From the NCBI GenBank assembly GCA_963729605.1, contig CAVSNY010000007.1:544001-608000 (forward strand): 64,000 bases of DNA. Direction: 5' to 3'. Origin of the DNA: an uncultured Gammaproteobacteria bacterium (lineage in GTDB: Bacteria; Pseudomonadota; Gammaproteobacteria; DRLM01). Of the stretch, positions 9,436 through 64,000 are shown piece by piece. Both the position numbers and the translations under genes were made by a program. Positions within the stretch are counted from its first letter, which is position 1; the number at the start of each line of letters is the position of its first letter. The notes beneath the pieces are model-generated. The model did no database searches. It was given only the letters and a program-made list of their open reading frames with translations, and was not told the origin of the DNA.

Positions 9436-10262
9436 TGAGTGGTTTGAAAAATCCGGCTGACTGGTTGCCGGAGGTGGTGGCCTTGGCCGAGGAGGCGGGA
9501 CGCAAGATCATGGAGGTCTACGCCCGCGGTTTCGACATCGAGCAAAAACACGACCGCTCGCCGCTCACCGAGGCGGACATGGCCGCCCATCACGTCATCA
9601 ACGCCGGCCTGAATAAACTGGCCCCCGGGGTGCCGGTGTTGTCCGAGGAAGCGGCCGACATCCCTTACGCCACCCGCGCGCAATGGCGCCGTTATTGGCT
9701 GGTCGATCCCCTCGACGGCACCCGCGAATTCATCAAGCGCAACGGCGAATTCACCGTCAACATCGCCTTGATCGACGAGCAGCGGCCGGTGCTCGGCGTG
9801 ATCTACGTGCCGGTGAGCGGCGTGAATTATTACGCCTGCGCCGGCCAGGGCGCCTACCGCACGGCGCCGGGCGAGGCGGCGCGGGCGATCAAGGTGCGGC
9901 CGTGGCGGGGCGGCCATATCGCGGTGGCCGGCAGCCGCTCCCATCGCGACGAAAGCTTCGACCGTTTCCTCGCGCAATTCCCCGACTACGAGATCATCTC
10001 CATGGGCAGTTCCCTCAAGTCCTGCCTGGTGGCCGAGGGCAAGGCGGATATTTATCCGCGCCTGGGTCCCACCTCGGAATGGGACACCGCCGCCGCGCAG
10101 TGCGTGGTGGAAGAGGCGGGCGGCAAATTGCTGGATCTGCGCTTGGCGCCCCTGCGTTATAACACCAAGGATTCCCTACTCAATCCCTCCTTCATCGTCT
10201 GCGGCGACACCCGCCACGATTGGGCGAAATACCTGTCGGCGGAGATCGTCGGACCCGGCTGA
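9435..10262 (+). CDS. cysQ: 3'(2'),5'-bisphosphate nucleotidase
   Basis: SPLTEAD, DPLDGTREF, GSSLK, PTSEWDTAA; ATG overlaps the nudE stop. Confidence 0.93.
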   Translation: MSGLKNPADWLPEVVALAEEAGRKIMEVYARGFDIEQKHDRSPLTEADMAAHHVINAGLNKLAPGVPVLSEEAADIPYATRAQWRRYWLVDPLDGTREFIKRNGEFTVNIALIDEQRPVLGVIYVPVSGVNYYACAGQGAYRTAPGEAARAIKVRPWRGGHIAVAGSRSHRDESFDRFLAQFPDYEIISMGSSLKSCLVAEGKADIYPRLGPTSEWDTAAAQCVVEEAGGKLLDLRLAPLRYNTKDSLLNPSFIVCGDTRHDWAKYLSAEIVGPG

Positions 10263-10291
10263 GCCTCCGGATCGCCGCCGCGGCCCCGCGC

Positions 10292-12934: not shown

Positions 12935-13386
12935 GAAGCCGGTCGGCTCGGCGGCGCGACTTCGTTGAGGAGCAGCCAATACAATCCCAGCTGGCCGACG
13001 CATTCGAGGAAACGTTCGAAATCCACCGGCTTGCGCAGATAGCTGTTGGCCCCCAGTGAATAACTGCGGAGGATGTCTTCTTCTTCCTTGGACGAGGTCA
13101 AGACCACCACCGGAATGAGTTTGGTGCGGGGATCGTTGCGGATCCGTTGCAGTACCTCCAGGCCGCTGACCTTGGGCAGTTTGAGATCGAGCAGGATTAC
13201 CGCCAGATCCTGCGTGAAGCTTTTGCCGGTGAAATGGCCTTGTTCGAACAGGAAGTCCAAGGCCTCCGCGCCGTCGCGGACGATTTCCACGCGGTTGAGA
13301 ATATTGTTCTTCTTGAGGGCGAGTAAAGTGAGTTCTTCATCGTCTGGATTGTCTTCAACCAACAGGATGGCCTTGGCGTGACTCAT
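12931..13386 (-). CDS. Single-domain response regulator
   Basis: [30 protein letters not shown]. Confidence 0.92.
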
Positions 13387-47424: not shown

Positions 47425-48291
47425 ATGATACGCAGTATGACGGCATTCGCCCGCCATGAGCGCGAGACGCCGTGGGGGACGCTGACTTGGGAGCTGCGTT
47501 CGGTCAATCACCGCTATCTGGAGGTCTATCCCCGCTTGCCCGACGATTTGCGCGCGCTGGAGACGCCGGTGCGCGAGCGTGTCACCGCCGCCCTGGGTCG
47601 CGGCAAGCTCGAATGTCAGTTGCGCTTTCGTTCCGTGGAGGCCGCGACCGCGGGCTTTTCGCTGGACCGGGATTTGATCGCCGGGCTGGTGGCCGCCACC
47701 GGCGAAGTGACGGCGGCTCTGCCCGCCGCCGCCGCGGTGAATCCCCTCGACGTGTTGCGTTGGCCCGGTGTGGTGCGCGCCGCGCCCCTCGATTATGAAG
47801 GCATCGCCGAGGCGGCGATGGCCGGTCTGAACCTGGCGTTGGCCGAACTGGTGGACACCCGCGAGCGCGAGGGGGCGAAATTACGGGTCCTGATCGAGCA
47901 GCGCTGCGACGCCATTGACACACAAGTCAGCGCGGTGACGCAGCGGGTGCCCGAGGTGCTGGCCCGGCAGCGCGAAAAACTCGTCGCCCGCCTCGCCGAG
48001 GTGCGCGCCGAACTGGACCCGTCGCGCCTGGAGCTGGAGATGGTGTTGTTCAGCCAGCGGTTGGACGTGGGCGAGGAAGTGGATCGCCTCGCCGCCCACA
48101 TCGGCGAGGTGCGGCGGGTGCTCAAACAGAAGGAACCGGTGGGCCGCCGCCTGGATTTTCTGATGCAGGAGCTCAATCGCGAGGCCAATACCTTGGGTTC
48201 CAAATCGGCGGATGTTGAGACCACCCGCGCCTCGGTGGAGCTGAAGGTCTTGATCGAGCAGATGCGAGAGCAGGTGCAGAATATTGAATGA
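47425..48291 (+). CDS. yicC: YicC/YloC family endoribonuclease
   Basis: MIRSMTAF, SVNHRYLE, GRRLDFLMQELNREANTLGSK, QMREQVQNIE. Confidence 0.96.
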   Translation: MIRSMTAFARHERETPWGTLTWELRSVNHRYLEVYPRLPDDLRALETPVRERVTAALGRGKLECQLRFRSVEAATAGFSLDRDLIAGLVAATGEVTAALPAAAAVNPLDVLRWPGVVRAAPLDYEGIAEAAMAGLNLALAELVDTREREGAKLRVLIEQRCDAIDTQVSAVTQRVPEVLARQREKLVARLAEVRAELDPSRLELEMVLFSQRLDVGEEVDRLAAHIGEVRRVLKQKEPVGRRLDFLMQELNREANTLGSKSADVETTRASVELKVLIEQMREQVQNIE

Positions 48292-48471
48292 ACGTCCGCG
48301 ACGGCCCCGCGGCGTCCGCTGATAGCGGCGCAAGTTTATGTCGGTACTGGTTTTCCGCCTTGTGCCCCCTTCGAGGGGCTTCCGATACCATCCAAAAAAA
48401 TTATGTAGCTACAATGTGTAGCTAGGCGTGTAGCTAAGACGCGAAACCGCGATGACGATGATCAGCAGCCT

Positions 48472-48706
48472 GCTTATGGGGGCGCTACCGTTCTTCATCT
48501 TGCTTGTGATCTTTATTGAAGAGTCATGGCATACCATGCGTGTTACAAACGGAGAATGCTTTTTCTCTGAGGTGAAAAATAAATTCCTTCTACAACATCA
48601 TCCTCGTCCACTTCCATAGCCGATTCTTCGATAGGCTCACCTCCAAGCTCTTTAATGAATTCCGCCGTGCCCCAAATCGGGATAGGCAGACTCATGCTCT
48701 GTTGGG
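48472..48706. repeat. ~235-bp direct repeat with 5'-truncated copy of the small gene at 54123
   Basis: Matches 54051-54286 (offset about 5580 bp). Confidence 0.9.
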
Positions 48707-48905
48707 CAGCATCGATCCGGGCGCTGCCGCCTTCGCCAAGGTCAAGGCCGGCGCGAGCCTGATCCAGCTTTACACGGGGCTCGTTTTTCGCGGTTCGAGC
48801 TGGTTTCCGAGACAAGTCCGTTTGCTAAACTTCGTGCGTCTTGGCCGCTATGACTCGCTCGCAGACGACGCGGCGGCGGTGATGGCGGAACCATGGCTGG
48901 AGTAG
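48707..48905 (+). pseudogene. pyrD: Dihydroorotate dehydrogenase C-terminal fragment
   Basis: AAFAKVKAGASLIQLYTGLVFRG. Confidence 0.7.
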
Positions 48906-49035
48906 CCACCCGCCCAAGCGTGCGGCCGAGACTCTCTTTTGTCTTTTCCTGTGGCCACCCCTTGTCATAGCACCAGTAAAAGTCAGGGCGAACATTTTCG
49001 CTTTTTACTTGATTTATAATCAGTGGTTTCTATAC

Positions 49036-49178
49036 TAGAAACTATCTCAAAATTGGGATATAGACTTCAAGCCGGTTAACTGTTTGCGCTCCATATCAGT
49101 ATTTCTCGTGAAATAATCAATGTTCATAGGCGTCATATGGGGCGAAGACTCTTAAAATCAATTTTGAGATAAGTTCTA
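49036..49178. mobile_element. MITE-like element, copy 2
   Basis: Terminal inverted repeats TAGAAACTATCTCAAAATTG / CAATTTTGAGATAAGTTCTA; related to 32312-32441. Confidence 0.75.
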
Positions 49179-49218
49179 ATCAAGTTGACTTCCACTGGAA
49201 TCCCAAGGAGGGGCGGCA

Positions 49219-51306
49219 ATGCAGATTCTCAATCTCATCTACGATAAGATCAATGAAGTCATCGGCGGCACCAGCGAAAATCAATTTTTTACGTTGATGC
49301 TACCGGGAACGCTTCTTAACAAGGCGGACTTCACGAGCGGCACGAAGGCCAAGATCGCGATCCAGGAATCCAATCTCGTCCATGGTCTGCTCGACCTTGC
49401 CCAGGTTGTTCCGTCGCACAACGGGCGCAAGCTTTTCCGGCAGTACGAGTCGGCGCTTAGCGCCCTGCTGCCGAAGCTCGATCCGCAGGTGGAAACCTGG
49501 CGCAAGGGTTTGCGCCAGATGCTCGATCAGCAGATCGAGGTCACCATTGATGGCAACAAGGCATCGATGAAAAAGCTGGATTATTTCAATCGGTTGGTCG
49601 ATCAGTACGACCAGGCCGTCGCCGACTGGGAGGGTCAACAGCATAAGAAGCGGGACAGCCTGCTTGCCGATCCCAACATAAAGGACGCGACCAAGCGCGA
49701 GGATGCATTCGATGCCTGGTACAGCGACAACTACCGGGCGACGGAGGCGAAGATTCAGCACGCCTATCAACAGACGACCGCCGTCCTGTCGCCGGACGAG
49801 CAGACGCTGATCGACCGTGTGCTGGGCAGCGGCGATACCAGCCTGATGGACGCCGCCGAAATCTTGCGGTCGGCGCCTGTCCAATATCCCCAGGGCGTCG
49901 CCTATCCGGTCGAGTTCACCCCCGGCAACTGGCCGAACCTGTTGGACAGCGACTTCGCCTACGTCGATCTGCTTGCGTCTCCGGAAGCGGTCGCCAACAA
50001 ACTCGACGTGCAGCAGCAGATCGTCCAGGATTCCATCGACCGTCTCAATGCCCTCACCGTTAATATGCCGACTGACCTGCAAAGCGATCTCGATGCGCTG
50101 ACGCAGGCGCAGAGCGCCTATCAGGACGCGCAGGACAGTTTGCTGACGACCTACACCCGGAATGCAGCGACCGCGGTGAAGATCTATCTATCGAAAACGC
50201 AGTCTAAGAAAGACGACCAGGCATCCAAGACCAAAAACGTCAACGGCATTCTCGGTGGACTCGAGAAGGATTCTCCTTCCTCCGACGCGGATGAGGGCAA
50301 GACTGGCAGAGGCGGGACATTGACGGACGATGACGTCAATAAGATCATGGACGGGCAAAAAACTTTGATTGCGGCGCAGAGCAAGGTTCAGGCGACCGGC
50401 CTAAACATGGCAGACGCCGCGAACAAGGTCGGGCGCGACGAGGCAGAATACATGGATTTGCACATCTATGTGGATAAGCTCGCCGCCGCGCTCAAACAGG
50501 TCGTCGCATTGCGCAAGCAGCTAGATATCACGGCGAACGTGCCGTCGGACAGTGTGATCAACAAGATCTATCCGGACGCGAAATCCGAGGCTTTCACCGA
50601 GGCGCTGGTCACCTTCCAAAAGCAGGACATGTCGGATCAGTCCACCCTGACGACGAGCTTTTCACAGACGAGCTGGTCAGTCGACCTGTTCTTCGGCAGC
50701 GCCAGCGGCACCAAGTCAAAACAACAAACCGACTTCACCCACGACGTTATGTCGGACAGCACTGATTTCCAAATCGGCATGCTGCTGGCGAAGGTTGAGA
50801 TCGACCGGTCCTGGTTCGATCCCGGCATCTTCGACCGCACCCAGGACATGCACCGGATCGGCGCGACACCGATCTCGCACGGCCCCCTGAAACCGGAGCA
50901 GTTCAAGAACGCGAACAGCACGATCCTGCCGACCTTCCCGACCGCCTTTGTGATTGCCAAGGACATCACGATCAAGATCGCCATTGAGGCGGGAAAGACC
51001 AGCCAGGCCTCGCACGTGCTGGATACTCACGAGTCGGAGAGCGGTGGGTTCCTCTGCTTTAGCGTCTCGCATGTGGCCGCCGACCACGAGGAAAGCAAGG
51101 TGTTCTCCTCGCACGTGGAGGGGACCAACGTCGTGATCCGCATCCCGGCGCCGCAGATCATCGGCTGGTACCAAGAGTTCGTGCCGCTCGATCAAAGCAC
51201 GGAGCTGACCGACGTCGACGAGGCTTCGCTGTCGGGCTTCCTGTCCAGCTACCAGCGGGTGGTCGCGGGCGCCGCGGGGCAGCAAAACTTGCGGCAGGCG
51301 GTCTGA
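49219..51306 (+). CDS. 695-aa hypothetical protein: helical/coiled-coil N-part, beta-rich C-terminal domain (candidate pore-former)
   Basis: AAGGAGG RBS, uninterrupted ORF, no signal peptide, Ser/Thr-rich hairpin-like segments centred on DLFFGS and GGFLCFS. Confidence 0.8.
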   Translation: MQILNLIYDKINEVIGGTSENQFFTLMLPGTLLNKADFTSGTKAKIAIQESNLVHGLLDLAQVVPSHNGRKLFRQYESALSALLPKLDPQVETWRKGLRQMLDQQIEVTIDGNKASMKKLDYFNRLVDQYDQAVADWEGQQHKKRDSLLADPNIKDATKREDAFDAWYSDNYRATEAKIQHAYQQTTAVLSPDEQTLIDRVLGSGDTSLMDAAEILRSAPVQYPQGVAYPVEFTPGNWPNLLDSDFAYVDLLASPEAVANKLDVQQQIVQDSIDRLNALTVNMPTDLQSDLDALTQAQSAYQDAQDSLLTTYTRNAATAVKIYLSKTQSKKDDQASKTKNVNGILGGLEKDSPSSDADEGKTGRGGTLTDDDVNKIMDGQKTLIAAQSKVQATGLNMADAANKVGRDEAEYMDLHIYVDKLAAALKQVVALRKQLDITANVPSDSVINKIYPDAKSEAFTEALVTFQKQDMSDQSTLTTSFSQTSWSVDLFFGSASGTKSKQQTDFTHDVMSDSTDFQIGMLLAKVEIDRSWFDPGIFDRTQDMHRIGATPISHGPLKPEQFKNANSTILPTFPTAFVIAKDITIKIAIEAGKTSQASHVLDTHESESGGFLCFSVSHVAADHEESKVFSSHVEGTNVVIRIPAPQIIGWYQEFVPLDQSTELTDVDEASLSGFLSSYQRVVAGAAGQQNLRQAV

Positions 51307-51325
51307 CCCAGCAGACAGCCGACAC

Positions 51326-51353
51326 GTGAAGGCGGCGCCAGCGCCGCCTTCAC
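51326..51353. terminator. Stem-loop after the 695-aa gene
   Basis: GTGAAGGCGGCGC-CA-GCGCCGCCTTCAC; no U-tract. Confidence 0.5.
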
Positions 51354-51466
51354 TCCGTGCTGGCCGCACTCTCAAACAACAGCGGGGCCGACTAGCGCGC
51401 GCAATCGCCGATGAATGACCCTGGCATTAGCCCAGCAAGCGGCCGGTCAGGTCGATGGAGAGGGAC

Positions 51467-51883
51467 ATGATACTCTGTTTTTCCCAGGACGATCTCGAGG
51501 TCGTTGAGAAGGCGTACGGACAGCAGACGAAGACCTACGGCACGGCGTATTGCTATCTTAAGGACCACTCGTACAACCAATTCCTCGGCCAGCAGGAAAA
51601 CCTATTCATCACGGCGCATGGCAACGAGGACGAGATCGGAAACCAGGGAGCGGGATTCGCGTTGACCCCGGAGCAACTCGCAGCCGTGCTTTCCAAGAGC
51701 GTGTTGCCCGGAAAGTACCAGGGTTCAATTTACGTTTCAGCGTGCGACACGTCGCCGAAATACGTCACTGGTCTCCTCAAGCATATGGGGGGCGACTATA
51801 AGGGCCGCATCTATGGCTGCGTCGGTGACGTCGACCTGGTCATCGAGCCATCGGGGAACAACATGTGGGTCATGGCAAAGTAG
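51467..51883 (+). CDS. Small caspase/CPD-fold (clan CD) peptidase-like protein
   Basis: LFITAHGN and IYVSACDT: strand-His-Gly and strand-Ala-Cys dyad motifs about 40 aa apart. Confidence 0.65.
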   Translation: MILCFSQDDLEVVEKAYGQQTKTYGTAYCYLKDHSYNQFLGQQENLFITAHGNEDEIGNQGAGFALTPEQLAAVLSKSVLPGKYQGSIYVSACDTSPKYVTGLLKHMGGDYKGRIYGCVGDVDLVIEPSGNNMWVMAK

Positions 51884-51899
51884 CCCTGGGACGCGCGTC

Positions 51900-52330
51900 C
51901 TCTGCCGCAGTTCTGCGGTCGGACCTAACGGCAAAACTCGCGGAAGCCAATGCCGGATACCTCCCGGCCTGCAACAGCCCGCGCGCGAGGAGAAACGTCA
52001 GCAGCGCATGCCATAGTCCGGTGTTGCCAAGCGGCTGCAACGTCCACCAAATCGCAAAATAAATCGCGAGCGCAATCAGCATCAGGTCGCGCCGATGAAG
52101 ATGCCGTCATAGCCATAGGCGAGCACGCCGGCGGTCGGCGCGAGCGCGGCGAAAATGAGGAACAGCCGGGGCGGCTTCCCGGACTTCGGAGCTCGTGGTC
52201 ATCAGGTCGATCAAGAGTTCGCCGCCCACGAGGAAAAACGCGCTGGTCGCGACGCCGAAGCCGAATCCCCAGGCGAGGATCAGCCGCACCGCGCGCGAAG
52301 GCGACTCGGTCGCGCGCGCCCACCGAGCTG
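51900..52330 (-). pseudogene. MATE/DinF efflux protein C-terminal fragment
   Basis: LIDLMTTSSEVR, YDGIFIGAT, LGNTGLWHALLTFLLARG across frames. Confidence 0.7.
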
Positions 52331-52341
52331 TAGCAGCCCGA

Positions 52342-52748
52342 TGCAGCTGGTGGATCACCTTTTTGTGTTCGAAGGCAATGGTGTTGTCCGCGATTTCCGG
52401 GCAACTCTACCGAGTACCGCGACAGGAAAGAATGGGAAGACAGGAACAAGCCTGCAGAGCAGATCACAGCTCCTGTTGAATAACGGAAGAGAAAAAAGCA
52501 GAGCCTGTTGCTGCAAAGCCGGAGCCAGCTGCCAATAAAAAGAAGCCGAGCTTCAAGGGAAAGTTTGAATACGAGCAGTTAGAGAAAGAGACAGCAGCGC
52601 TTGAAAAGAAGAGAAACACTTTCCGAAAAACTGAACAGCGGCATCAGCGATCATAACGAGATCGCGAAATGTTCGCAGCGCATTTCAGCTCATTTCCGAG
52701 CTGGATGAAAAAGGGCTGAGGTGGCTGGAGTTGAGGGAGATGATGTAA
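52342..52748 (+). pseudogene. ABC-F (Uup-like) C-terminal fragment
   Basis: LVDHLFVFEGNGVVRDF, KFEYEQLEKE, ELDEKGLRWLEL across frameshifts. Confidence 0.65.
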
Positions 52749-52777
52749 TCTCCCCAAAGAAAGGAATTACCTGCTAT

Positions 52778-53941
52778 TTACTCCTTTGTGCAGATTCGCA
52801 TATTATTTGTATAATTTTTCCTTGCTGCGGTGGTCGTTTGCAACACTTTTTCTATGTTTGCACCCTGATTTTCGAAGCAGGCATTATCCACCCAATTATG
52901 AAAGGCCATGGGGGCATTTGGAATATTGCTGGGGTTGGTAACGCGCGCTACCGATATTCCATCAATAAAGTATTCGATGCAGTTGCTATTCATTACAATC
53001 TGGTATTCGTGCCAGTTCTCGTCAAGATCGGGGAGACGCACCACCGAAAATTGAAGCCCGTTAAACGTATGTGCAAAGAAGCCGTTGTTCTCCTCGCTTA
53101 CATTCCCCTGCTGCTGCATGAACCAGGCTGTTTTCATTCCTACCACCGGAATTGCATTCGTGTTCCAAAAGCCCCAGCCTCGGGATCCGCCATTAATATT
53201 CTCTACTTTTATCTTTGCGGAAAAAATAATGTTATGGGCAGGAGCAAACGGAATATTTATGAAAAGGTCGTAAATAAAATTCTCCAGCTCAATGGTATCT
53301 GTGATCGTATCAACAGGGTAGGGGTTCACAATTACATTTTTGGGAAGCTGCGTAGTATAAGGGCTGTTGTACACCTCGGAATTTGAATAAGCGTTGCTAC
53401 TTGCCGGAGGAATGGAATTTACAAGGTAGTTGCCGTTGGGTGTATTGAACTCATGCGTGCCTGCAATATCAACCCGCTGAAACCAGAAATCTTCGGAAGG
53501 ATTGTGCAAGTCATAACGGTTTTTCGTATTGCAAAAAGCGACACTTTTCTCGTAATCACCAATGAGAATAAGTATATAAAATAAAGCGGACTGAATTGCC
53601 GCAGCACTATTCTTTCCAGGTGGTGAAGAGATTTTTGTTTTCAGAATATTGACAATATTTAAAGCAAGATCGAGCAAGGCATGATGATTCTTTGCCTGCA
53701 AATCGATTCCTTTCAGCTCCTTGAGCCATGCTGCTTTTTTTGCTGCATCAGCGAAATTGATCTCTTCTTTTAGTTGGGGCAATGCTATTCCGGCTTCCAT
53801 AATGAGCTTTGTAAAGGAAACGGAATGGTCTGATCCGATGAGGCCGGGTTGCTGTTCAAGTGCATGGGCAAGCTTAACAGTAAAGGCAATAAAGGTAGTT
53901 GGGGTTTGCATGTTTGGGAGTGTCCATATTCTTTCGCACAT
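52778..53941 (-). CDS. Protein with C-terminal GH16/ConA-like domain
   Basis: GSRGWGFWN, WHEYQI...IEYFIDG, HNWVDN; AT-rich. Confidence 0.6.
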   Translation of the reverse strand: MCERIWTLPNMQTPTTFIAFTVKLAHALEQQPGLIGSDHSVSFTKLIMEAGIALPQLKEEINFADAAKKAAWLKELKGIDLQAKNHHALLDLALNIVNILKTKISSPPGKNSAAAIQSALFYILILIGDYEKSVAFCNTKNRYDLHNPSEDFWFQRVDIAGTHEFNTPNGNYLVNSIPPASSNAYSNSEVYNSPYTTQLPKNVIVNPYPVDTITDTIELENFIYDLFINIPFAPAHNIIFSAKIKVENINGGSRGWGFWNTNAIPVVGMKTAWFMQQQGNVSEENNGFFAHTFNGLQFSVVRLPDLDENWHEYQIVMNSNCIEYFIDGISVARVTNPSNIPNAPMAFHNWVDNACFENQGANIEKVLQTTTAARKNYTNNMRICTKE

Positions 53942-54122
53942 TTATTAACGGTGGTCCGTTCTGGTCACGCCGCCGCCCCCGGCGTCTCGCTGAAAGGTGA
54001 TGTATGTATAAAGCTGGTATGACTGGATGATAAAGCCGGCCTGGATCCTGGCTTATAGGCGCCCTTACCGCTCGTCATCTTGCTTATGATCTTCATTGAA
54101 AAGTCATTGCATACCATACGTG

Positions 54123-54335
54123 TTACAAACGGAGAATGCTTTTTCTCTGAGGTGAAAAATAAATTCCGTCTACAACATCGTCCTCGTCCACTTCCATAGC
54201 CGATTCTTCGATAGGCTCACCTCCAAGCTCTTTAATGAAATCGGCCGTGCCCCAAATCGGGATAGGGAGACTCATGCTCTGTTGGGACATGGTATCCCAC
54301 CCAGTAAATCTATAGACCATCACACGCTTGCCCAT
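54123..54335 (-). CDS. Small hypothetical protein (intact copy of the duplicated gene)
   Basis: AAAGGA RBS before MGKRVMVYRF...; 3' part duplicated at 48543. Confidence 0.65.
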   Translation of the reverse strand: MGKRVMVYRFTGWDTMSQQSMSLPIPIWGTADFIKELGGEPIEESAMEVDEDDVVDGIYFSPQRKSILRL

Positions 54336-54420
54336 GGCGATTCCTTTCAATAATTCCATCTGACGTTAATGCGTTGCGTTTGGCGGCGACATTTTAATAA
54401 CACTTGACGATGACGAGAGA

Positions 54421-54777
54421 TTACAAAGTCGACAACAAATAGCCATGAAGCCACCGATTCAGTAGCGGTCCCATGTCGATACCAACGCATTTTCCCAATT
54501 GGTCGTAATAGTAGGCCAGAGACTCTCGGTCCTCCTGGTCGAGGGGTTTCTCTACCGAGCAAAGCGAGGTCTTGATGTACATACTTAGCTGGGCAGGCGA
54601 AGCACCACTCTTCACCAATGACGCAAGATCACTGGCGCAACGATTAAGCGCCGCCTCTAAAGGTCCGGCCAATCGTGCCCTGCTCGGAACGCGAAGTTCC
54701 GGCTCTGCACGCTGGAACTTCGGGGCTGCCTGGAAAGTAGCCAGATCAGCAAGCATTTCGTCGCTGTCTGCGTTCAT
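54421..54777 (-). CDS. DUF4844-like hypothetical protein
   Basis: LDQEDRESLAYYYDQL...LLNRWLHG. Confidence 0.55.
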   Translation of the reverse strand: MNADSDEMLADLATFQAAPKFQRAEPELRVPSRARLAGPLEAALNRCASDLASLVKSGASPAQLSMYIKTSLCSVEKPLDQEDRESLAYYYDQLGKCVGIDMGPLLNRWLHGYLLSTL

Positions 54778-54949
54778 AAGAGGTCACGTTCGCTAAACAA
54801 CACAACAACCAGTGTTTTAAAACAGGCTCGTCTCATTGCTCGCCCTGACAATGACTGCTAATTACAGCATAGCAGACGCTCCCGGTGGTCGCGCTGATGG
54901 CGCCTCAAACATGGTCTGAGGCGAGCTTGTTACCTCTGTGGCCTTGGGC

Positions 54950-55085
54950 GCGCCGCCGCGCTCGTCGGCATCTTGAGGAATAGCAAATACGTCAACTGCT
55001 CGACGTAGTCACCATACGACAGGCCATCGTCGCGCAGCACGTTGCAGTAGTGCCAGAGTTTTTGGACGATGGTAGATGTGTTCAT
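54950..55085 (-). pseudogene. hsdM: Type I R-M HsdM 5' fragment (third copy)
   Basis: MNTSTIVQKLWHYCNVLRDDGLSYGDYVEQLTYLLFLKM. Confidence 0.85.
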
Positions 55086-55088
55086 GCG

Positions 55089-56010
55089 TCAGTTCCCAAA
55101 CAAGAATGCTTCCAATTTTTCTGCAGCCTCTTGCCGTTTCTTATCCGAGATGCGTTCCAGGTTATGCAGCTTCCACTGTACGGCAGGCAGATGTAGGGCC
55201 TGCGGATAGGCGAATTGCGTCCAATCGGCTCCGCCCTTTTTCACCGCGAGCAGAAATCGTTTGTCAGCATCCGTGAGCGTATTGTTCAATATCTGAACCA
55301 ACTGCGCCCGACTTTCGATCAATGTATCCAGACTGACCGGCTCCGCCACCATGCCAGAAAATTCCGCCCGATAGGCCGGTTCGATGTCCTGCATCGTAGG
55401 ATTCAGCAACTCCACCATAGGCCGATTGTGCGCCAGCAAGTAGACCAGAAAGACATCCTTGAGCGCGGGCGTGATCCCCTCATTGGCAAGCAACAGGTGC
55501 ACATCGTACAGATCACGGGGGTGCTGCCGATCCAGAGCTGCGCACAGCTTCCCCGCGTACAGCTCATCGAACGCCAGCACCTGCATGCGCGCATACCCAA
55601 AACCGTTGCGCACACTCTGCGACACCTCATGCAGCTCCGGCGTCAATAGGCTTCCTCTCAACACCGGCGTGACCTCCACTTTCACGGCCACGTCACCGCG
55701 TACCACCAGCAGTTTGAAGTGAAAGCGCGTGCCCTTCAGGATCGATGCGTGCACCCTGCAACCGGACACCATGCGCTCGATATCCGAAGCGATCGTGCGT
55801 AGCGCCTTATCGATACCCGCGAGAATTCGTGTTCCGTTCTTCCAGTGGCAGATAGACTAGATCGATATCCACCGACAGCCGTGGCATATTGCGCACGAAT
55901 AGATTAATCGCTGTGCCGCCTTTCAACGCAAAACATTCCTGCCGGGCCACGATCGGCAACAGGCTGACCAGCAGGCCGACCTGGTCAGAAAAAGTCTGGG
56001 CCAGCGCCAT
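55089..56010 (-). pseudogene. abiEii: AbiEii nucleotidyltransferase toxin with 1-bp frameshift near 55826
   Basis: FALKGGTAINLF, RLSVDIDL in one frame; KLCAALDRQHPRDLYD in the next; joined by ILAGIDKALR. Confidence 0.85.
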
Positions 56011-56779
56011 CCGCCATCTCTCCTGCCATGTCACGCGGTACAGTGATGAGAAATTTCCGATCCAAAACGCCGCCACGGATGATCATCCGCTTGCTTCGTC
56101 CGAGTTCCACACCGCCGGTATCCAATACTGAAAACCAGGGATGTTGATGGCGCACGCTGAACCATAGAAACAACCGCTTCGCCTTGATATGCGTGCACGC
56201 GAGCAACAGTGACCGCACCCGTTCCGGCCGCAGAGTGGCCGCTGCCGCAAACAACTCGTCGGCAACCTGGAAGTCGGTGACGGTTTCCACCTCGGCGAGC
56301 AATTCCAGAAAAGCCAATTCCGGCGTCGCGTAGCGTATGGGCCAGTCCCAATGCCCGAACGGTCGAGAGATCACCGCCTCCGCGGGCGGGACAGCAAATA
56401 GCTTCGGGTTGTGGCGCTCCAGGCGGTATTTCGCCACCAAGTCTTCAACCCAAGCCGGCCAGCGGCTCACCCCATACAGCGCTATTCGACGCCCCTCGCC
56501 CATGGGCAGGTAATGCGCCAGGCCCATCAGTTCCAGCGCACTGCGCCCGCCCACATGGACCGCATACCCCAATGCCTGGAGCGAGTAGACGACATGCTCC
56601 CACTTCAAGGGCGGTCCCGGCCGCCGATAGGCGCCTCGGGCTACCGCTTGCAATGCACCCGAGCGCAGGTAGAAGTCGACACGCGGCCGATCGAAACCCT
56701 TGGCCTTCAGCCAGTTGCGATCCACCACCTGCCCCTCGGGCAGACAGGATTCCAAGGAATGGGAGGGTTGGGCGACCAT
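55985..56779 (-). CDS. abiEi: AbiEi type IV TA antitoxin
   Basis: LPEGQVVD, HVGGRSALEL.GLAHYL, TPELAFLE, KAKRLFLW. Confidence 0.85.
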   Translation of the reverse strand: MVAQPSHSLESCLPEGQVVDRNWLKAKGFDRPRVDFYLRSGALQAVARGAYRRPGPPLKWEHVVYSLQALGYAVHVGGRSALELMGLAHYLPMGEGRRIALYGVSRWPAWVEDLVAKYRLERHNPKLFAVPPAEAVISRPFGHWDWPIRYATPELAFLELLAEVETVTDFQVADELFAAAATLRPERVRSLLLACTHIKAKRLFLWFSVRHQHPWFSVLDTGGVELGRSKRMIIRGGVLDRKFLITVPRDMAGEMADGAGPDFF

Positions 56780-56924
56780 GAGCGGTTTACCGACATCCTC
56801 TTTTGCATAGTATTGCTATGCATTATGGACAAACGCTAAACCAGAGACAAGTTTAGAGTTTACCGGCTTTGCATAGGCGGGCTATGCGAAAAAGCCTAAG
56901 GGGCAAACCAAGCAAAGGCGAAAG

Positions 56925-57005
56925 GCAGTCGCCATACAACATGCCGTCGTCGCGGAGAACGTTGCAGTAGTTCCAGAGTTTTTGGACGATGGTGGCAGTA
57001 TTCAT
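56925..57005 (-). pseudogene. hsdM: HsdM 5' fragment (second copy)
   Basis: MNTATIVQKLWNYCNVLRDDGMLYGD. Confidence 0.8.
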
Positions 57006-57084
57006 AGCCCTGCTTTATTACCCTCTCCATTACCCTTACGTCAGGGTCATTACCCTTTCTTCCGCTACCGAGCAGCCGGCTTCG

Positions 57085-57588
57085 TCATTCTGCGACATGC
57101 CCCAGGTGTTCCCGCAGCACCTCGACGGGGTAGCGGTAACCGACAGCTCCGAAGGGGATGCGGTTTAGTCTGTGGTGAAGGTCGACCAAATCAACACTTT
57201 CCAGACCCCCAGCGTGTTCGACGCTCAGCTCGACATGAAAGCGAACATCGTTCATCGACCCCAGCACGCTGCGGTTGTTGGAACGTGTGAAACGAATCGT
57301 GCGGGCTGCATCCAGCATCCTCTCGACCTGAACCTGGGTAAATTCGTCCCAGAGCAGCGCCTTGAACAGACGCTGACCAAAAACCAAATCCAGCCGCATG
57401 AACTCCGGTTTTTTCAGCCCCGGCACGAACACGGAGTACAAGGTCACATCATGCGTAAACAACACGCACTTGCGCCGCTCGATACGCAGAAGATTGGCGT
57501 GCCAGCTTTCGCCGGAAGCACTCGGGTCAACGAGGTCATCAGGAATTTCCTTCAGCAACTTCTGTGTGCAATGTATCAAGAGCGGCAT
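57085..57588 (-). CDS. DUF6933-like hypothetical protein
   Basis: LIHCTQKLL, WHANLL, NRSVLGSMND, LNRIP. Confidence 0.65.
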   Translation of the reverse strand: MPLLIHCTQKLLKEIPDDLVDPSASGESWHANLLRIERRKCVLFTHDVTLYSVFVPGLKKPEFMRLDLVFGQRLFKALLWDEFTQVQVERMLDAARTIRFTRSNNRSVLGSMNDVRFHVELSVEHAGGLESVDLVDLHHRLNRIPFGAVGYRYPVEVLREHLGHVAE

Positions 57589-57599
57589 ACGGATCGATC

Positions 57600-58173
57600 C
57601 GTCAACACGAGCAGCCGCCGCAGCTTCGCCGGGTCTTGAAGCTTGTTCTGCGACTTGTTGAAGATCAGCCCGAGCAAGCCCTTCTGGTTGCCCAACGCCT
57701 CAAGCATGTGACGGTAGTGATGAACGGTTCGTCACGTCCAGCCACGTAATAGTGCTATTACGTAAGCCCTCAAGCGTGTGGCGATAGTGATCGAACAGCT
57801 CGTCGCCGTCACAAACCAAACCCCCTCTCCCGCTCGCGGGAGAGGGCTGGGGTGAGGGCGGCCAACCGTACTTCTCCGGTACCGGGCTCGTCTGGTTATA
57901 CGGCGCCTTGGTGCGCTCGTCGGCCATCACCCCTTCTAATCCCCTCTCCCTCTGGGAGAGGGCTAGGGTGAGGGCATACGTCAACTGCTCAGAGCCTGCC
58001 CTGTGTGAAGTCGAAGGGTACTCGCCATACGACATGCCGTCGTCGCGCAGGGTGAGCCGGGGTTTCTCGCGAGCACCTGCGTACTCGCGTGCCGGCGAAC
58101 GGATGCGGCTCTGTCCACACCCTGGGCCGTTGCAGTAGTTCCAGAGTTTTTGGACGATATTGGACGAGTTCAT
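57600..58173 (-). pseudogene. hsdM: HsdM 5' fragment (first copy) interrupted by repeats
   Basis: MNSSNIVQKLWNYCN..LRDDGMSYG..EQLTY..MADERTKAPY..GDELFDHYRHTLE..KSQNKLQDPAKLRRL with inserted palindromes. Confidence 0.85.
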
Positions 58174-58191
58174 GGAATCGGTTCGTGCTAC

Positions 58192-59151
58192 TTAGTTTTC
58201 GTTTTCGGACTTCACGACGAAGTCTGCATATGAGAGGTGACCTCGCACCCTCTGCATATCGTCGTCTCTAATCTTTCCAGACGCCAATAGGTGTTTGAAT
58301 GCGCGAATCCTGTTTCTATATCCCTTTGTTAAGCGAGGAGTACTGCCGTGCACCAATAGACCGTGCACCTTCAAGCGTGCGGGTAATTTGCTTAGATGCT
58401 CTTTTTCTGGAGCTATGTCCCAGCCCCCACTGGTAACAATCGCTCTAACGCGTTCAGCAAGTTCGTGTGGCGGCTCACCTTGGCCCGAAAAGACAATATC
58501 ATCGGCGTATCTGGTGTAACGAATGTTTTCTGCTTTAGCGATGTCCTGAAGCTGAATATCGAAAGGCGTAAAAACGAGATTGGATAACACTGGGCTGGCC
58601 GGTGACCCTTGTGGCAAGCGCGCATTCAGCGTGCACAAGCGGGTAATCAATGTGGCGCCATGCTCCGCGTACCCCAGGCTAGTCAGTGCCCCTAACACCT
58701 GGTCTGAGGTGGTGCTCGAAAAAAAATCCCGGATATCGAGCGAATAAACCCAAGTTGCGTCGCAATGAATTTTGGCAGCACCTACGACAGATCTGCCTTG
58801 CACAAATCCATAAATGCAGTCTGGCAATTCAACGCTTGCGCTCAGATGCGCGCCAATCCATCGCTGAACCACCTTAAGCGCCACACGTGGTGCTTGTATT
58901 TGTCGTGTCTTCTTACCCTTCTTGATCTTAAAGTTTCGATAGTAGCGATGAGGGACACGGACCATTGTGCCTACGAATTCTGCGCTAACGCCAAAAAGGG
59001 TACTAACGGTACGAAGGGAAACGGCCGGCGGAAGGCCTTTCTCAGCAAGAGCACGAATTTCTGGCTCGTAGGTCTCTCGCGTTTGCTGAGGCAGCGACTC
59101 TACTAAAGTGTCAACTGAGGAAAAGGAAACGAGGAGTGGCGGCGCGTTCAT
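58192..59151 (-). CDS. Retron-type reverse transcriptase
   Basis: R.I.AP...LK.VQRWI, YGFV.GRS..GAAKIH (region X), LDIRDFF, LPQGSPASP.LSN, YTRYADDIVFS, VHGL (region Y VTG variant). Confidence 0.92.
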   Translation of the reverse strand: MNAPPLLVSFSSVDTLVESLPQQTRETYEPEIRALAEKGLPPAVSLRTVSTLFGVSAEFVGTMVRVPHRYYRNFKIKKGKKTRQIQAPRVALKVVQRWIGAHLSASVELPDCIYGFVQGRSVVGAAKIHCDATWVYSLDIRDFFSSTTSDQVLGALTSLGYAEHGATLITRLCTLNARLPQGSPASPVLSNLVFTPFDIQLQDIAKAENIRYTRYADDIVFSGQGEPPHELAERVRAIVTSGGWDIAPEKEHLSKLPARLKVHGLLVHGSTPRLTKGYRNRIRAFKHLLASGKIRDDDMQRVRGHLSYADFVVKSENEN

Positions 59152-59307
59152 GGGAAGAGCAAAGCTGAAAAGCTTTCGTTGACGCAGCCTGCAGAACTGC
59201 GGGTGATTCGAAGGAGCACCCGCAGTTCTGCAGGCTTCCTTCTGTCCCTGGTCTTCGCTAGTGGGCGTGATACACGCCCGCACGAGTGCGCCGCCACAAA
59301 TCCCACT
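59152..59307 (-). ncRNA. Putative retron msr-msd ncRNA
   Basis: Intergenic, directly 5' of the RT; short hairpin 59263-59279 precedes a perfect 20-bp stem at 59186-59236. Confidence 0.75.
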
Positions 59308-60054
59308 TTACCACTCCTTGCGCCGGGAAAGTAAGAGCATCCGCTCAACATCCGTGCTGGACCGGGAGCGGGAATGGGGGACCAGATCGAGGCCTGTCGC
59401 CGTCAGGACGTACGACCCACTGTGTTCCCTAAGTACAAGGCCCTTCTTACGGGCCGTATCAAGCCGCCTAGATAACCATCGGTCATTTGGAATAATGAAC
59501 CCACGACCCCGTAGATACTCAATGACTGCCGCTATCTTGGCTGGTGACAAGGCCTTTAGCGCACGGAGTATTGCGGCAATGGACGGTTCCGGGGAGCCGG
59601 GCGGTATGAATTCGATGCCCTCGACTTTCAATGCTGCAGCGTCAAGGTACTCGTTTGCTTGCTCACTAATCTGTTTAACGGAGGCATCCGTTGCCTCGCT
59701 TTTTAGGGAAACCCATATTTGAGCAGATTCACCGGTCACGAATGACATATAGATACCGGAGACATTGTCTGGATATCTACGCACTAACAAAGCTTCAAGA
59801 CCCGCCTCCAAGGAATCCAATTGATGCTCTTGGCGAAAGGCAGTGACAACATTCACGTTGAATTTCTCACGTATCATGCGCCCTAGATACGCAAGCTGGC
59901 GCTTAGAAGTGAAGCCTTTTCCAGATATCTCCCTTACGCACTTAAGTGGAATCTCAAGCACTAAGGTATTGGATGGCTCGTCAAAGTGGAAAGACGTCAC
60001 ATAGTCTGCCTTACGACCCTTTAGGTACGCCGCGATGTCTTTTTCGTTATACAA
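59308..60054 (-). CDS. Retron-associated protein with C-terminal winged HTH
   Basis: AILRALKALSP...WLSRRLDTARKKGLV...SYVLTATG; overlaps the HEPN gene stop. Confidence 0.75.
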   Translation of the reverse strand: MYNEKDIAAYLKGRKADYVTSFHFDEPSNTLVLEIPLKCVREISGKGFTSKRQLAYLGRMIREKFNVNVVTAFRQEHQLDSLEAGLEALLVRRYPDNVSGIYMSFVTGESAQIWVSLKSEATDASVKQISEQANEYLDAAALKVEGIEFIPPGSPEPSIAAILRALKALSPAKIAAVIEYLRGRGFIIPNDRWLSRRLDTARKKGLVLREHSGSYVLTATGLDLVPHSRSRSSTDVERMLLLSRRKEW

Positions 60055-60547
60055 GACCCAACTCCTTCGATATACCTAGCAATACACCTATCGCCTGATC
60101 TACGCGGGTTTTCCAATTTCTTGCTTCTGCCCTGGTATGGTTTGCCAGTGCAAAGTCTGCATGATTGAATAAGACAGGCTGCTCAGGTTTGTAATCAGCT
60201 ACGACACGAACGTTGTAAGCAATACGAAGAATGCTGGCGATTTCGCTCGATGCCTGGCCCGCCTGCTTTGAGATTGCACGCTCCCTTGACGTTGTGATGG
60301 TGTCGTGTTTTTTCAACTTCTTTGCTTGATTCCGAATAATTCTCAGCACGTCACCCTCTAGCAGATCTGGCAATCCGCTATGAGTTCTTCTACCCCAATC
60401 CGCATCAAGCGCTGATACAAATTTACGTACACCAAGAAATGTCGCGTAGTAATAGCGGTTAAAAGCGCTGCGCGCGAAGGCATCCGCATCAAGGGGCTCT
60501 TTTTGCACCTTGGCTTCACTAGACAAATGTTCAGCTACCTGATGCAA
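60047..60547 (-). CDS. Retron-associated HEPN domain protein
   Basis: RSAFNRYYYA, TH, RVVADY pattern of HEPN proteins; TTG start. Confidence 0.78.
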   Translation of the reverse strand: MHQVAEHLSSEAKVQKEPLDADAFARSAFNRYYYATFLGVRKFVSALDADWGRRTHSGLPDLLEGDVLRIIRNQAKKLKKHDTITTSRERAISKQAGQASSEIASILRIAYNVRVVADYKPEQPVLFNHADFALANHTRAEARNWKTRVDQAIGVLLGISKELGLV

Positions 60548-60550
60548 CTC

Positions 60551-61408
60551 TTAGGTCCTCCGCAAAGGGACGAATGAGTTCGCGAGCGTAGCTTGGCGCA
60601 GGCGCTCGGCTCGCTGGAGGTTGGCGTCCACCTCAGCCCCGGTTTCGCGGAGAATGGAGAGGCGACGGTCGATTTCGGCGACCACTCGCAGCTGTTCTGC
60701 AACTGGCGCTACAGGGAGTGGTAGCTGTGCGAATGACTCGCGAGTGAAATGCTTGATCGTGCTGCCTGTAAACCAACGCTCAAGCCGACCAGTCTTTGCC
60801 AAGAATTCTAGATAAAAGACGAGCAATCTCTGCTCATAACCAGCCTTAAACCTCACGCGGTGGATGGCCTTCTGGTACATCATTCCAAGAACTCGGCCAT
60901 CCCAAATGGCTGCTCTGCCTGGTTCGCCTCCCTCGCACACCAAAACATCCCCGGTTTGCAATCCATACCTTTCAAGCTCGCTATCTTTGAAAAACATCGT
61001 CAGCAAGTCTGATGAGTCAGCCGAATCCCAGCGAACATTGATGTTTCGAAGGTAAGGCAACTCCTTCCCTAATTGATGCTTCTGCTTATCCAGCATCTTT
61101 CCCAGCTGAACATTCGCTAGCTGTTCTACCGTCGCCCACACCCACCCCTCCGGCAATTCTGGCAGGTCGGTGGTGTCGGGCGCGGCGGGTTCTTTGTATT
61201 TGCCCTTACCTTTCCACTGGCTGCGGCGGGTTTCGAGGATGCGTTGCAGGAGTTGTTCGCCGGTTTCGTAGCTGCGGCCTTCGCTGCGGGCGAGTTCCAC
61301 GCCGCGGTAAGCCGTGATATTGGCTTGGTCGACATCGCAGACATGCCAGCCCGCTTGGGCAAGCAATTGATCGATCTCCCCTCGGGCGTCTTGTTCCGGA
61401 TTCCCCAT
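60551..61408 (-). pseudogene. hsdS: HsdR N-terminus fused in frame to the C-terminal half of HsdS
   Basis: PEQDARGEIDQLLAQAGW (HsdR start), then LLQRIL...LPELPEGWVW...PLPVAPVAEQLRVV...LRQATL (one TRD). Confidence 0.78.
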
Positions 61409-61720
61409 CTTCCCAGCTTCAGGCTTGTTTTTGTGAGCACAGCGCGTCGGCATTCCCCGCCACGGATCATAACATTCGAGCGATGGAAAACCAGCCGAAC
61501 ACCCTGACTAAGCTCGTGTGTGGACGAAGCCGGCCCGCCCGCTGGCGAGACCGTCTTCGTCCTGGGCATTGACCTGCGTGTAATGATGAAACACGGCGAG
61601 CAAGGTTTCATCGACATGTCGCGCGTGGTGTTTATCCGGGGATGTGATGACGGGTGAATGAATCGGAGTCCGTTCCGCGTGGGCACGGAAGACGTGCCCA
61701 TCCTATTGTGTTCATCGCCC

Positions 61721-62296
61721 TCAGAAGCGATAGCCCACTCCCAGCTCCCAGGCGTAGACATTCGCGCCGGCGAAACGGTAGGTGTTCCATCCCAGCCGCA
61801 CCGGCAGATAGGGGGTGGCCGCCAGTTCCAGACCGATGCCCAGGTTGCCGCTCACGCCGTTATCGGAAAATTTTCGCGATGCCGTGGCGCTGGCCAGGGT
61901 GTAATCGGCCTTCCATGCCAATACGCCAAGTTTGAATATCCCATCGATCCTTTCGTGCATCGCTTTGCGCATGACCACGTTGAAGGTCCAACCCGAGGCG
62001 GTGACGGGGTGCACCGCCGAGGCGGTGGCGAGATAGCTGTCGACGTCGGAGGTCGCGCCGCTGATGGTGGTGGTCACCTCGCCCAGATCGACATAGCCGA
62101 ATTCAAAAGCGGCATGTTTATGTACCTGATAACCGATATAGGGCGACCAGCCGTCGCGCGACAAATCGGTTTGCGTTACGTCGGCGGCCAAACTCAAGGC
62201 GCTGAACTCGGCCTCGAAATCAGCGCTCCGCTCATCACTCTTGACCGCGAGATAACTCACTCCGACATAAGCGGGTTTGAGCGAAGTGAGCGGCAT
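61721..62296 (-). CDS. Outer-membrane beta-barrel (OmpA-type membrane domain), probably 5'-truncated
   Basis: IGYQ...AFEFGYVDLG, C-terminal LGVGYRF; no signal peptide. Confidence 0.6.
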   Translation of the reverse strand: MPLTSLKPAYVGVSYLAVKSDERSADFEAEFSALSLAADVTQTDLSRDGWSPYIGYQVHKHAAFEFGYVDLGEVTTTISGATSDVDSYLATASAVHPVTASGWTFNVVMRKAMHERIDGIFKLGVLAWKADYTLASATASRKFSDNGVSGNLGIGLELAATPYLPVRLGWNTYRFAGANVYAWELGVGYRF

Positions 62297-62539
62297 GGGT
62301 GGCTGGACCAGTCTGACGGGCGAAAAAATATTTCCTCGTCATGAAGATATGTCGCATAATCGCGAGCAGGTAAAATATCGTATAAATTTAAATTCGGGCG
62401 GCGTACCGGCCATGGGGATGGCCGTTCTACATTCCGCCCGGTAAAGTCCGCCAGTCCGAGAAGCGCCGCGACGTTGAAACAGGGCGCGTCCGCCGCCGGT
62501 GCGGGGCGGGAAGCGCGTGACGTCGGCCGCGGTGCGTAA

Positions 62540-63205
<666 letters not shown>

Positions 63206-63286
63206 CCGGCCCGCCATTCCCAAGGGCGCGGCAAGCGGGGTATACTCCCCGGTCACTGTTATTGCTTCACGCTCAAGGGGAAATTC

Positions 63287-63613
63287 ATGGCGCGAGTCAC
63301 TGTAGAAGATTGTCTGGACAACGTCGACAACCGTTTCCAATTGGTGCTGATCGCCACCCGGCGGGCGCGCCAGTTGGCCAAAGGCACGGCGCAGCCCGGC
63401 CTGCCTTGGGAAAACGACAAGCCCACCGTGATGGCGCTCCGCGAAATCGCCGAGGGTTTGGTGGACGTGTCGATCCTCGATCAAGTGCCCGCCGACGAAT
63501 TCGTTCACTCCGCCGAGATGACCGAGGCCCAGCGCGCCGAGCTGGAGGCCGAAGTGGGTGAAAAGGCCGCCGTGCAAGTCGCCCCCGGTCGGGAGGACGC
63601 GGGTGAGGAGTGA
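63287..63613 (+). CDS. rpoZ: RNA polymerase omega subunit
   Basis: MARVTVEDC...[25 protein letters not shown]. Confidence 0.96.
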
Positions 63614-63637
63614 TACTCCTCCCGTTGCCCGGCAGCC

Positions 63638-64000
63638 TTGAATAATCCAGCGCCCAGTCACACTCTCGCCGATACCCCTCAAGATTCCACCCGCGCGGTG
63701 ATCGGTGATCTCTGCACGCTGCTCACTTCCTATCTTGAACCCTCGCAGGTGGAGGGCGTGCGGCGCGCCTGCGATTTCGCCGCCGCCGCCCACGCCGGCC
63801 AGCAGCGCGCCTCCGGTGAACCCTATGTGCAACACCCCATCGCGGTGGCGCGCATCCTCGCCGAGATGCGCATGGATCACGAGAGCATCATGGCCGCCAT
63901 CCTCCATGACGTGATCGAAGACACCCCCACCGCCAAGGAGCAGATCGCCACCCAGTTCGGCGCCGAGGTCGCGGAGCTGGTGGACGGGGTGAGCAAGCTC
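63638..64000 (+). CDS. spoT: (p)ppGpp synthetase/hydrolase, 3' truncated by window
   Basis: AHAGQQRASGEPYVQHP, AAILHDVIEDT read by hand; follows rpoZ. Confidence 0.92.
   Translation, partial: MNNPAPSHTLADTPQDSTRAVIGDLCTLLTSYLEPSQVEGVRRACDFAAAAHAGQQRASGEPYVQHPIAVARILAEMRMDHESIMAAILHDVIEDTPTAKEQIATQFGAEVAELVDGVSKL

Follow-up and report, generated by a model that had tools for sequence, protein, structure and literature searches.

A 64,000-nt stretch of the genome of an uncultured Gammaproteobacteria bacterium (contig CAVSNY010000007.1 of assembly GCA_963729605.1, positions 544,001 to 608,000; hereafter the window) carries an apparently intact set of genes around a reverse transcriptase (RT), lodged in the remains of a type I restriction-modification (R-M) locus. 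The question is whether these genes form a complete retron, and what became of the operon in which they are embedded. Our analysis indicates, with a probability of about 0.93, that the region 58192–60547 (minus strand) is a complete retron of type IX, an anti-phage system of the abortive-infection kind with Retron-Kva2, Sen3 and Yin1 as homologues. Judged by its sequence, the copy is diverged and apparently intact, and the system itself is already known and mechanistically described. The type IX class reportedly goes back to Mestre et al. 2020.

The locus contains genes for a HEPN effector, a winged-helix (WH) accessory protein, a non-coding RNA (hereafter ncRNA) and the RT, in this order. An initial annotation of this DNA had recognized four co-oriented parts here; all were found on the minus strand where it had placed them, and the three open reading frames (ORFs), 733 codons in total, are open. 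The HEPN and WH genes overlap by 8 nt, and a 156-nt spacer (59307–59152) separates the WH and RT genes. Only 3 nt lie between the hsdS stop and the retron, and 18 nt between the retron and the hsdM start. The mechanical ORF call extended the RT to a GTG at 59283, giving 363 aa. Because the RT_IX profile aligns only from residue 45 of this product, the longer ORF is an over-extension across the ncRNA, which is also common in database homologues (356–368 aa).

Class membership of the RT was assigned by hidden Markov model scores. The PADLOC RT_IX model matched over profile positions 1–315 of 317 (E = 2.8e-140, 464.9 bits), and the second model, RT_III-A, reached 234.3 bits. The RT thus groups with retron type IX and not with the non-retron classes that the initial annotation had named as the outcome that would speak against it. 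Pfam returned RVT_1 (1.3e-20). The best match in the Protein Data Bank (PDB) was 36ht_A, the Kva2 RT (2.4e-83 over residues 5–319), followed by the Ec86 RT (6.4e-33) and, further down, Drt2 (1.3e-06). The motifs YADD, GAAKIH and VHG, noted in the initial annotation, are present in the translation. Residue conservation was counted on proteins translated from related loci, drawn from a set of 80 that was retrieved from species genomes with an RT alignment, together with the window's own protein (62 + 1 sequences for WH). YADD is invariant in 78 of 78 RT sequences.

The mechanism of type IX retrons had been called little studied, which is out of date, as three preprints of July 2026 (Hayashi et al., Carabias et al., Hibshman et al.) describe it. 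According to the accessible parts of these preprints, the RT, the WH protein (KH and helix-turn-helix, HTH, domains), HEPN and the multicopy single-stranded DNA (msDNA) join in a higher-order complex that keeps a HEPN dimer caged. The reported HEPN site lacks the Rx4-6H motif and is built from H64 and R122, and Y40–42 engage RNA. The msDNA tip is read by HTH residues D197, R200, K201 and R207 in Sen3, which correspond to D199, R202, K203 and R209 in Yin1 (bioRxiv 10.64898/2026.07.14.737667). The RT thumb of Kva2 binds the msr stem-loop G18–C34, and the N-terminal domain of the RT and the C-terminal helix of WH are given as essential. Phage factors that cut or bind the msDNA are described as freeing the RNase, which leads to cleavage of tRNA (in one report also of rRNA) and abortive infection. 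Both Kva2 and Sen3 defend E. coli when cloned alone, and it is for these two only that abortive-infection defence is shown to depend on the RT and HEPN active sites. Control of a HEPN effector by msDNA, proposed in the initial annotation, is what the preprints report for Kva2, Sen3 and Yin1, and by analogy it would apply to the present copy.

The two proteins encoded upstream of the RT match their type IX models over their full length. The HEPN protein aligned with PADLOC HEPN_IX (1.3e-50, residues 1–165 on profile positions 1–161 of 161), and in a search of all PDB chains its best match was 36ht_I, the HEPN of Retron-Kva2 (3.2e-27). H56 aligned to Kva2 H64 and R114 to Kva2 R122; instead of an Rx4-6H motif the protein has this His and this Arg, separate from each other. 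Y32–34 are the equivalents of Kva2 Y40–42. None of the 65 homologues compared varies at H56, R114, Y33 or Y34. By analogy with Kva2, H56 and R114 are predicted to form a composite active site in which Y32–34 position the substrate.

The WH protein aligned with PADLOC HTH_IX (2e-70, residues 1–246 on profile positions 1–240 of 240), and its best PDB match was 36ht_B, the Retron-Kva2 WH (2.3e-31 over residues 5–245). These matches are consistent with tandem KH-like domains followed by a C-terminal winged HTH that would read the msDNA tip. Its D199, R202, K203 and R209 are the counterparts of the tip-reading residues of Yin1, down to the same numbering. D199 is kept in 60 and R202 in 59 of the 63 sequences; K203 is kept in 48 and replaced by Arg in 14 more, and R209 is kept in 52. 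A Pfam search found nothing in the HEPN or the WH protein.

The spacer between the WH and RT genes folds with -84.5 kcal/mol (z = -5.04), and none of 200 shuffled sequences folded as well. The initial annotation had placed the ncRNA within this spacer. The spacer is indeed structured, but the 3' repeat a2 falls within the RT coding sequence, at codons 3–6; the ncRNA is therefore about 162 nt long and overlaps the RT start. A structure written from the window sequence was then counted in an alignment of 60 sequences (59 related-locus spacers and the window's own). Paired cells amounted to 80.4%, compared with 64.0% in shuffles, and covariation to 0.448, compared with 0.155 in shuffles, none of 500 being as high; with the pairing partners slid it was 0.08–0.17. 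In the msd stem, which is 85.9% paired, changes on both sides were seen in 20 of 20 pairs. The msr stem-loop has 99.5% of its cells paired and both-side changes in five of seven pairs. The two helices of the small hairpin between the msd template and a2 are 94.9% and 74.2% paired, with both-side changes in four of six pairs. The a1/a2 helix is poor in the alignment (48% paired), where two subgroups are out of register. When each sequence was tested on its own, all 60 proved to have a 5'/3' (a1/a2) duplex of 8 bp or more; the mean was 11.6 versus 7.5 with shuffled 3' regions.

Across loci the msd loop is conserved, and the DNA complementary to it holds TCGAAGG, the msDNA tip, which includes the GAAGG read by the HTH in Yin1 and Sen3. 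Placed by reference to the Kva2 msr stem-loop of 17 nt, the msDNA would be about 70–76 nt long and templated within approximately 59252–59177; conserved Gs at 59283 and 59281 are candidates for the branching G. A search of positions 50000–64000 with Rfam 15 (E up to 1) revealed no retron family. Sub-threshold Rfam matches of miRNA precursors to the msd hairpin were rejected as chance hairpin likeness.

Gene content and spacing are shared by most of the related loci. For 71 loci the sequence upstream of the RT amounts to 1500 nt or more; both accessory genes lie there on the same strand in 59, one is detectable in six and none in the remaining six, three of which are partial RT matches. This co-occurrence was a check proposed in the initial annotation, and it bears the assignment out. 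The distance from the WH stop to the RT start is 140–170 nt in 59 of 64 loci, in line with the 156 nt of the window. A search with the single RT protein retrieved just two Bacteroidia loci, at 31% identity. Among 400 genomes of the same class the RT_IX model (E ≤ 1e-60) was found only in the window's own (1/400), so there is no close kin for synteny. Metagenome contigs from two runs contain the whole retron (58128–60702) with 149 differing letters and 7 gaps, and the same contigs run on into the central region of hsdS across a different 452-nt recognition domain.

Together, the full-length matches to PADLOC RT_IX, HTH_IX and HEPN_IX and the best PDB matches, all to chains of Retron-Kva2, agree with the type IX assignment made earlier. 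As far as the accessible text goes, Retron-Kva2 of Klebsiella variicola (PDB 36ht; bioRxiv 10.64898/2026.07.14.738597, PMC13405049) has the same three full-length proteins in the same gene order, the same non-canonical HEPN site (H64/R122 in Kva2, H56/R114 here), the YYY motif and YADD, the N-terminal domain of the RT and the C-terminal helix of WH, an msr stem-loop of 17 nt and a long msd hairpin whose tip is conserved. The present copy differs in that its proteins are diverged, the HEPN and WH matches reaching just ~100–110 bits, in its host, an environmental bacterium of ~60% G+C and not an enterobacterium, and in being embedded in a dead type I R-M locus. With Sen3 and Yin1 it shares GAAGG in the tip, the catalytic His of HEPN and the Asp-Asp of the RT. 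Retron-Eco1 (Ec86, type II-A) likewise has a YADD retron RT, an msr-msd ncRNA with a1/a2 and an effector partner with an HTH domain, which domain 3 of WH is said to resemble in the accessible text of the Kva2 preprint. In contrast to the present retron, its effector is an N-glycosidase and not a HEPN RNase, its gene order and accessory proteins differ, and the match between the two RTs is far weaker than that to Kva2. With this locus, the retron type for which the 2026 preprints give structure and trigger logic gains a diverged member from an environmental host.

By homology with the systems in those preprints, the present copy may work as follows. The RT would bind the msr stem-loop and the a1/a2 duplex, prime from the branching G and copy the template region into msDNA, which would fold into a 20-bp hairpin with TCGAAGG at its tip. 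WH would wrap a HEPN subunit and read this tip, and in the higher-order complex built by RT, WH, HEPN and msDNA the composite H56/R114 site of the HEPN dimer would be occluded. Cutting or binding of the msDNA by a phage factor would release the HEPN RNase, and the freed enzyme would cleave tRNAs and rRNAs and arrest the infected cell.

Several points weigh against a working type IX retron at this locus. For the present copy, we infer msDNA, defence and toxicity by homology. In the accessible text, the preprints give different triggers (a phage exonuclease, a PD-(D/E)XK nuclease or the HTH protein D5 of T5) and differently shaped assemblies (a sheet, a ring of 8–10 units or an asymmetric complex), and the transferred mechanism is therefore unsettled in detail. 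The Kva2 WH tip contacts D190 and N193 align to R192 and S195 and are changed here; both positions are variable across the type IX family. The present copy could serve as a comparison point for the msDNA-tip/WH contacts that are truly conserved, as D199, R202, K203 and R209 are kept in it and the equivalents of D190 and N193 are not. The retron stands among decaying neighbours, with hsdR, hsdS and hsdM in fragments, a split AbiEii and inserted REP elements. Among the 40 listed of 275 differences to the metagenome relatives, 13 lie in retron genes, eight of them non-synonymous and five synonymous; such a small and selected sample lends purifying selection no support. A scan of the minus strand between 57500 and 62400, by a crude consensus match, found no sigma-70-like promoter. 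As no promoter-like site was found and the upstream operon is a remnant, expression is uncertain. The decaying neighbours, the non-synonymous differences and the negative promoter scan, with the upstream operon cut down to an hsdR-hsdS chimera, would also suit a retron that is intact-looking but silent or already inactive, a relic that lost its promoter with the R-M operon and is becoming a pseudogene. We consider this unlikely, as the three ORFs are open over all their codons, all residues known as essential are retained, and in the ncRNA the 20-bp msd stem is still perfect, the conserved tip is present and the a1/a2 duplex is 10 bp long. Furthermore, the promoter scan was crude, and the 5' end of hsdR is retained upstream, presumably with its promoter region. 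That the system is under selection, as the initial annotation held, is suggested solely by the intact ORFs and the conserved essential residues.

The tight packing of the retron between the hsdS stop and the hsdM start raises another explanation, namely that it serves, or once served, the surrounding type I R-M system as a functionally coupled backup, in the manner of PrrC with EcoprrI. The placement is the same in a Verrucomicrobiota locus described below (L021), and embedded backup systems are known from the accessible text of Payne et al. 2024 and from TgvAB. However, an hsd gene adjoins the retron in just 3 of the 80 related type IX loci, and Kva2 and Sen3 are reported to protect E. coli without any such partner. 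In addition, hsdM is a mere stub both here and in L021, and therefore there is no enzyme to be coupled to. We judge coupling to be very improbable; since the host operon has decayed, the embedded type IX retron most likely now acts on its own. Least credible by far is an RT of another retron type or of a non-retron class (group II intron, Abi/UG/DRT) next to an unrelated toxin-antitoxin pair. The Pfam results, a generic RVT_1 and nothing in the two neighbours, would leave room for this, but the RT_IX score is about twice that of the next retron model, the Kva2 RT is a far better PDB match than Ec86 or Drt2, the matches of the two neighbours to HEPN_IX and HTH_IX are full-length, and the WH and RT genes enclose a covarying msr-msd ncRNA.

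Table 1 Coordinates of the retron and of the surrounding R-M remnants and cassettes (window positions unless a contig is named)
Feature	Position	Strand	Remarks
Retron RT	59151-58192	minus	319 aa, ATG start; YADD 215-218; type IX N-terminal domain
Winged-helix / KH-KH-HTH accessory protein	60054-59308	minus	248 aa, TTG start
HEPN-like RNase effector, predicted	60547-60047	minus	166 aa, TTG start
Retron ncRNA (msr-msd)	59297-59136	minus	~162 nt; fold, alignment, covariation
a1 repeat	59297-59288	minus	10-bp duplex with a2
a2 repeat	59145-59136	minus	inside RT codons 3-6
msr stem-loop	59263-59279	minus	7 bp, UAU loop, 17 nt
msd stem-loop	59186-59236	minus	20-bp perfect stem (100% complementary), 11-nt loop
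Small conserved hairpin between msd template and a2	59161-59176	minus	covariation
Dead R-M remnant, hsdR-hsdS chimera	61453-60551	minus	300-aa open ORF; tblastn with G030 HsdR, HsdS
hsdM stub 1	58173-57579	minus	residues 1 to ~100; starts 18 nt past RT stop
REP-type insertions in hsdM stub 1	57975-57938 and 57860-57819		G-rich palindromic element
DUF6933/PDC-S63 gene	57588-57085	minus	full length; starts at break of hsdM stub 1
hsdM stub 2	57005-56913	minus	31 codons; closes DUF6933 cassette
AbiEi	56779-55985	minus	full length
AbiEii, split between two frames	56076-55807 and 55772-55089	minus	profile positions 2-43 and 84-228
hsdM stub 3	55085-54933	minus	51 codons; closes AbiE cassette
Repeated hsdM 5' ends	window 54933-58173; L011 (G008) 10757-14093; L012 (G030) 9008-11707		

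The hsd genes that flank the retron are broken, as had been reported, and they are more damaged than was seen at first (Table 1). The flank described as an hsdS 3' end does contain the C-terminal half of hsdS, but the ORF is a chimera in which hsdR codons 1–39 (61408–61292) are joined to hsdS residues 213–457 (61297–60572); it has matches to Methylase_S in Pfam and to Specificity_I in PADLOC. Nearly all of hsdR, together with the first recognition domain of hsdS, seems to have been lost in a single deletion. On the other side, the hsdM 5' end was correctly recognized, but it is a stub of about 100 codons with two repetitive extragenic palindromic (REP)-type insertions, and the first of three stubs. 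Dozens of copies of the REP-type element are found across the window's genome and its relatives, and contigs of other organisms have a short uninterrupted sequence where the insertions interrupt stub 1. One of the copies in the stub yields a terminator-like hairpin and a spurious REP-like match to Rfam 'whalefall-1' (search of 50000–64000), which was rejected as chance hairpin likeness.

No intact hsdR, hsdM or hsdS was found at the locus. A search of the whole genome with the hsdM (MTase_I) model gave three matches at the locus, all of them stubs, and its full-length matches are only to more distant genes on other contigs, at no more than 126.8 bits, so the R-M system is dead. The three stubs are 86–87% identical to each other, and each closes a different defence cassette. 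In the AbiE cassette, AbiEi is full length and AbiEii is split between frames, and the pair is therefore probably inactive.

The native order of this R-M family is hsdR, hsdS, cargo, hsdM. In G030, a genome of the same class and another family, hsdR and hsdS are intact and are followed by an OLD-like ATPase and an hsdM stub, then by pieces of DUF6933 and the hsdS 3' end, by the pair PDC-M05A/B and, at the contig end, by hsdM. The DUF6933 fragment (L012 9429–9857) follows the hsdM stub directly, as the full-length gene does in the window. In G008, a genome of the same family as the window, the hsdM 5' end occurs three times, and unannotated genes lie in between. Outside the phylum, the Verrucomicrobiota metagenome-assembled genome of L021, one of the three type IX loci with an adjoining hsd gene, has a full hsdS, then a retron whose HEPN ATG overlaps the hsdS stop, and then a 50-codon hsdM stub (5956–6108) that starts 4 nt past the RT stop. 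After this stub, L021 (6079–10908) encodes a 1609-aa protein with DUF4011, SF1 helicase domains, an MTES_1575 nuclease and DUF3320. Some of the hsdM stubs break at a similar place, past the LFLKM motif, at about codon 40–50.

Tentatively, and with the odds somewhat against it, the hsdS-hsdM junction of this R-M family can be viewed as a cassette slot, in which the conserved hsdS 3' end and the first 40–100 codons of hsdM would act as homology arms that swap defence cargo, even between phyla. One-sided or unequal recombination would leave a stub behind each newly added cassette, and the three stubs of the window would record the serial acquisition of the type IX retron, DUF6933/PDC-S63 and AbiE. 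If this is true, unannotated genes between stubs in relatives are candidate new defence genes, and the Verrucomicrobiota unit of hsdS, retron IX and hsdM stub is a travelling cassette with its arms.

Defence genes embedded in type I R-M operons are known, according to the accessible parts of the sources: PrrC in EcoprrI, the cases collected as 'guilt by embedding' by Payne et al. 2024, and TgvAB in the type I R-M operon of V. cholerae VPI-2 (PMC11411939). With PrrC/EcoprrI and TgvAB the window shares a defence cassette between the hsd genes of such an operon. Unlike them, the host R-M system is dead here, and the slot holds three serial cassettes, each closed by an hsdM 5' stub. Neither hsdM-stub arrays nor embedded retrons were found in the accessible literature on type I R-M embedding, and the word 'retron' does not occur in the available text of Payne et al. 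2024; genomic contexts listed in supplements to the type IX preprints may bear on this. The array of hsdM-stub cassettes, found again in relatives and in a genome of Verrucomicrobiota, is the sole mildly novel aspect of the locus. The context, a retron as embedded cargo that outlives its type I R-M host, with hsdM stubs that mark successive cassettes, is the more useful part, and the stub pattern could be mined for new defence genes. In G008, five ORFs of 147–349 aa without a PADLOC match lie between hsdS and hsdM stubs (L011 8313–13518), and by their position they are candidate embedded defence genes.

The R-M remnants are part of a variable island (48300–62500) located between yicC (47425–48291) and an OmpA-like gene with gmk-rpoZ-spoT (61721–64000). 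The island holds a 695-aa ORF without a Pfam match (49219–51306) and, at 52500–54500, a block of low G+C (41–47%, compared with ~60% around it). This block is associated with a 387-aa ORF (53941–52778) that has a weak GH16-like match and with small ORFs of unknown type (54777–54421 and 54359–54123). A segment of ~235 nt is duplicated within the island, at 54052–54287 and 48472–48706, with 93% identity between the copies.

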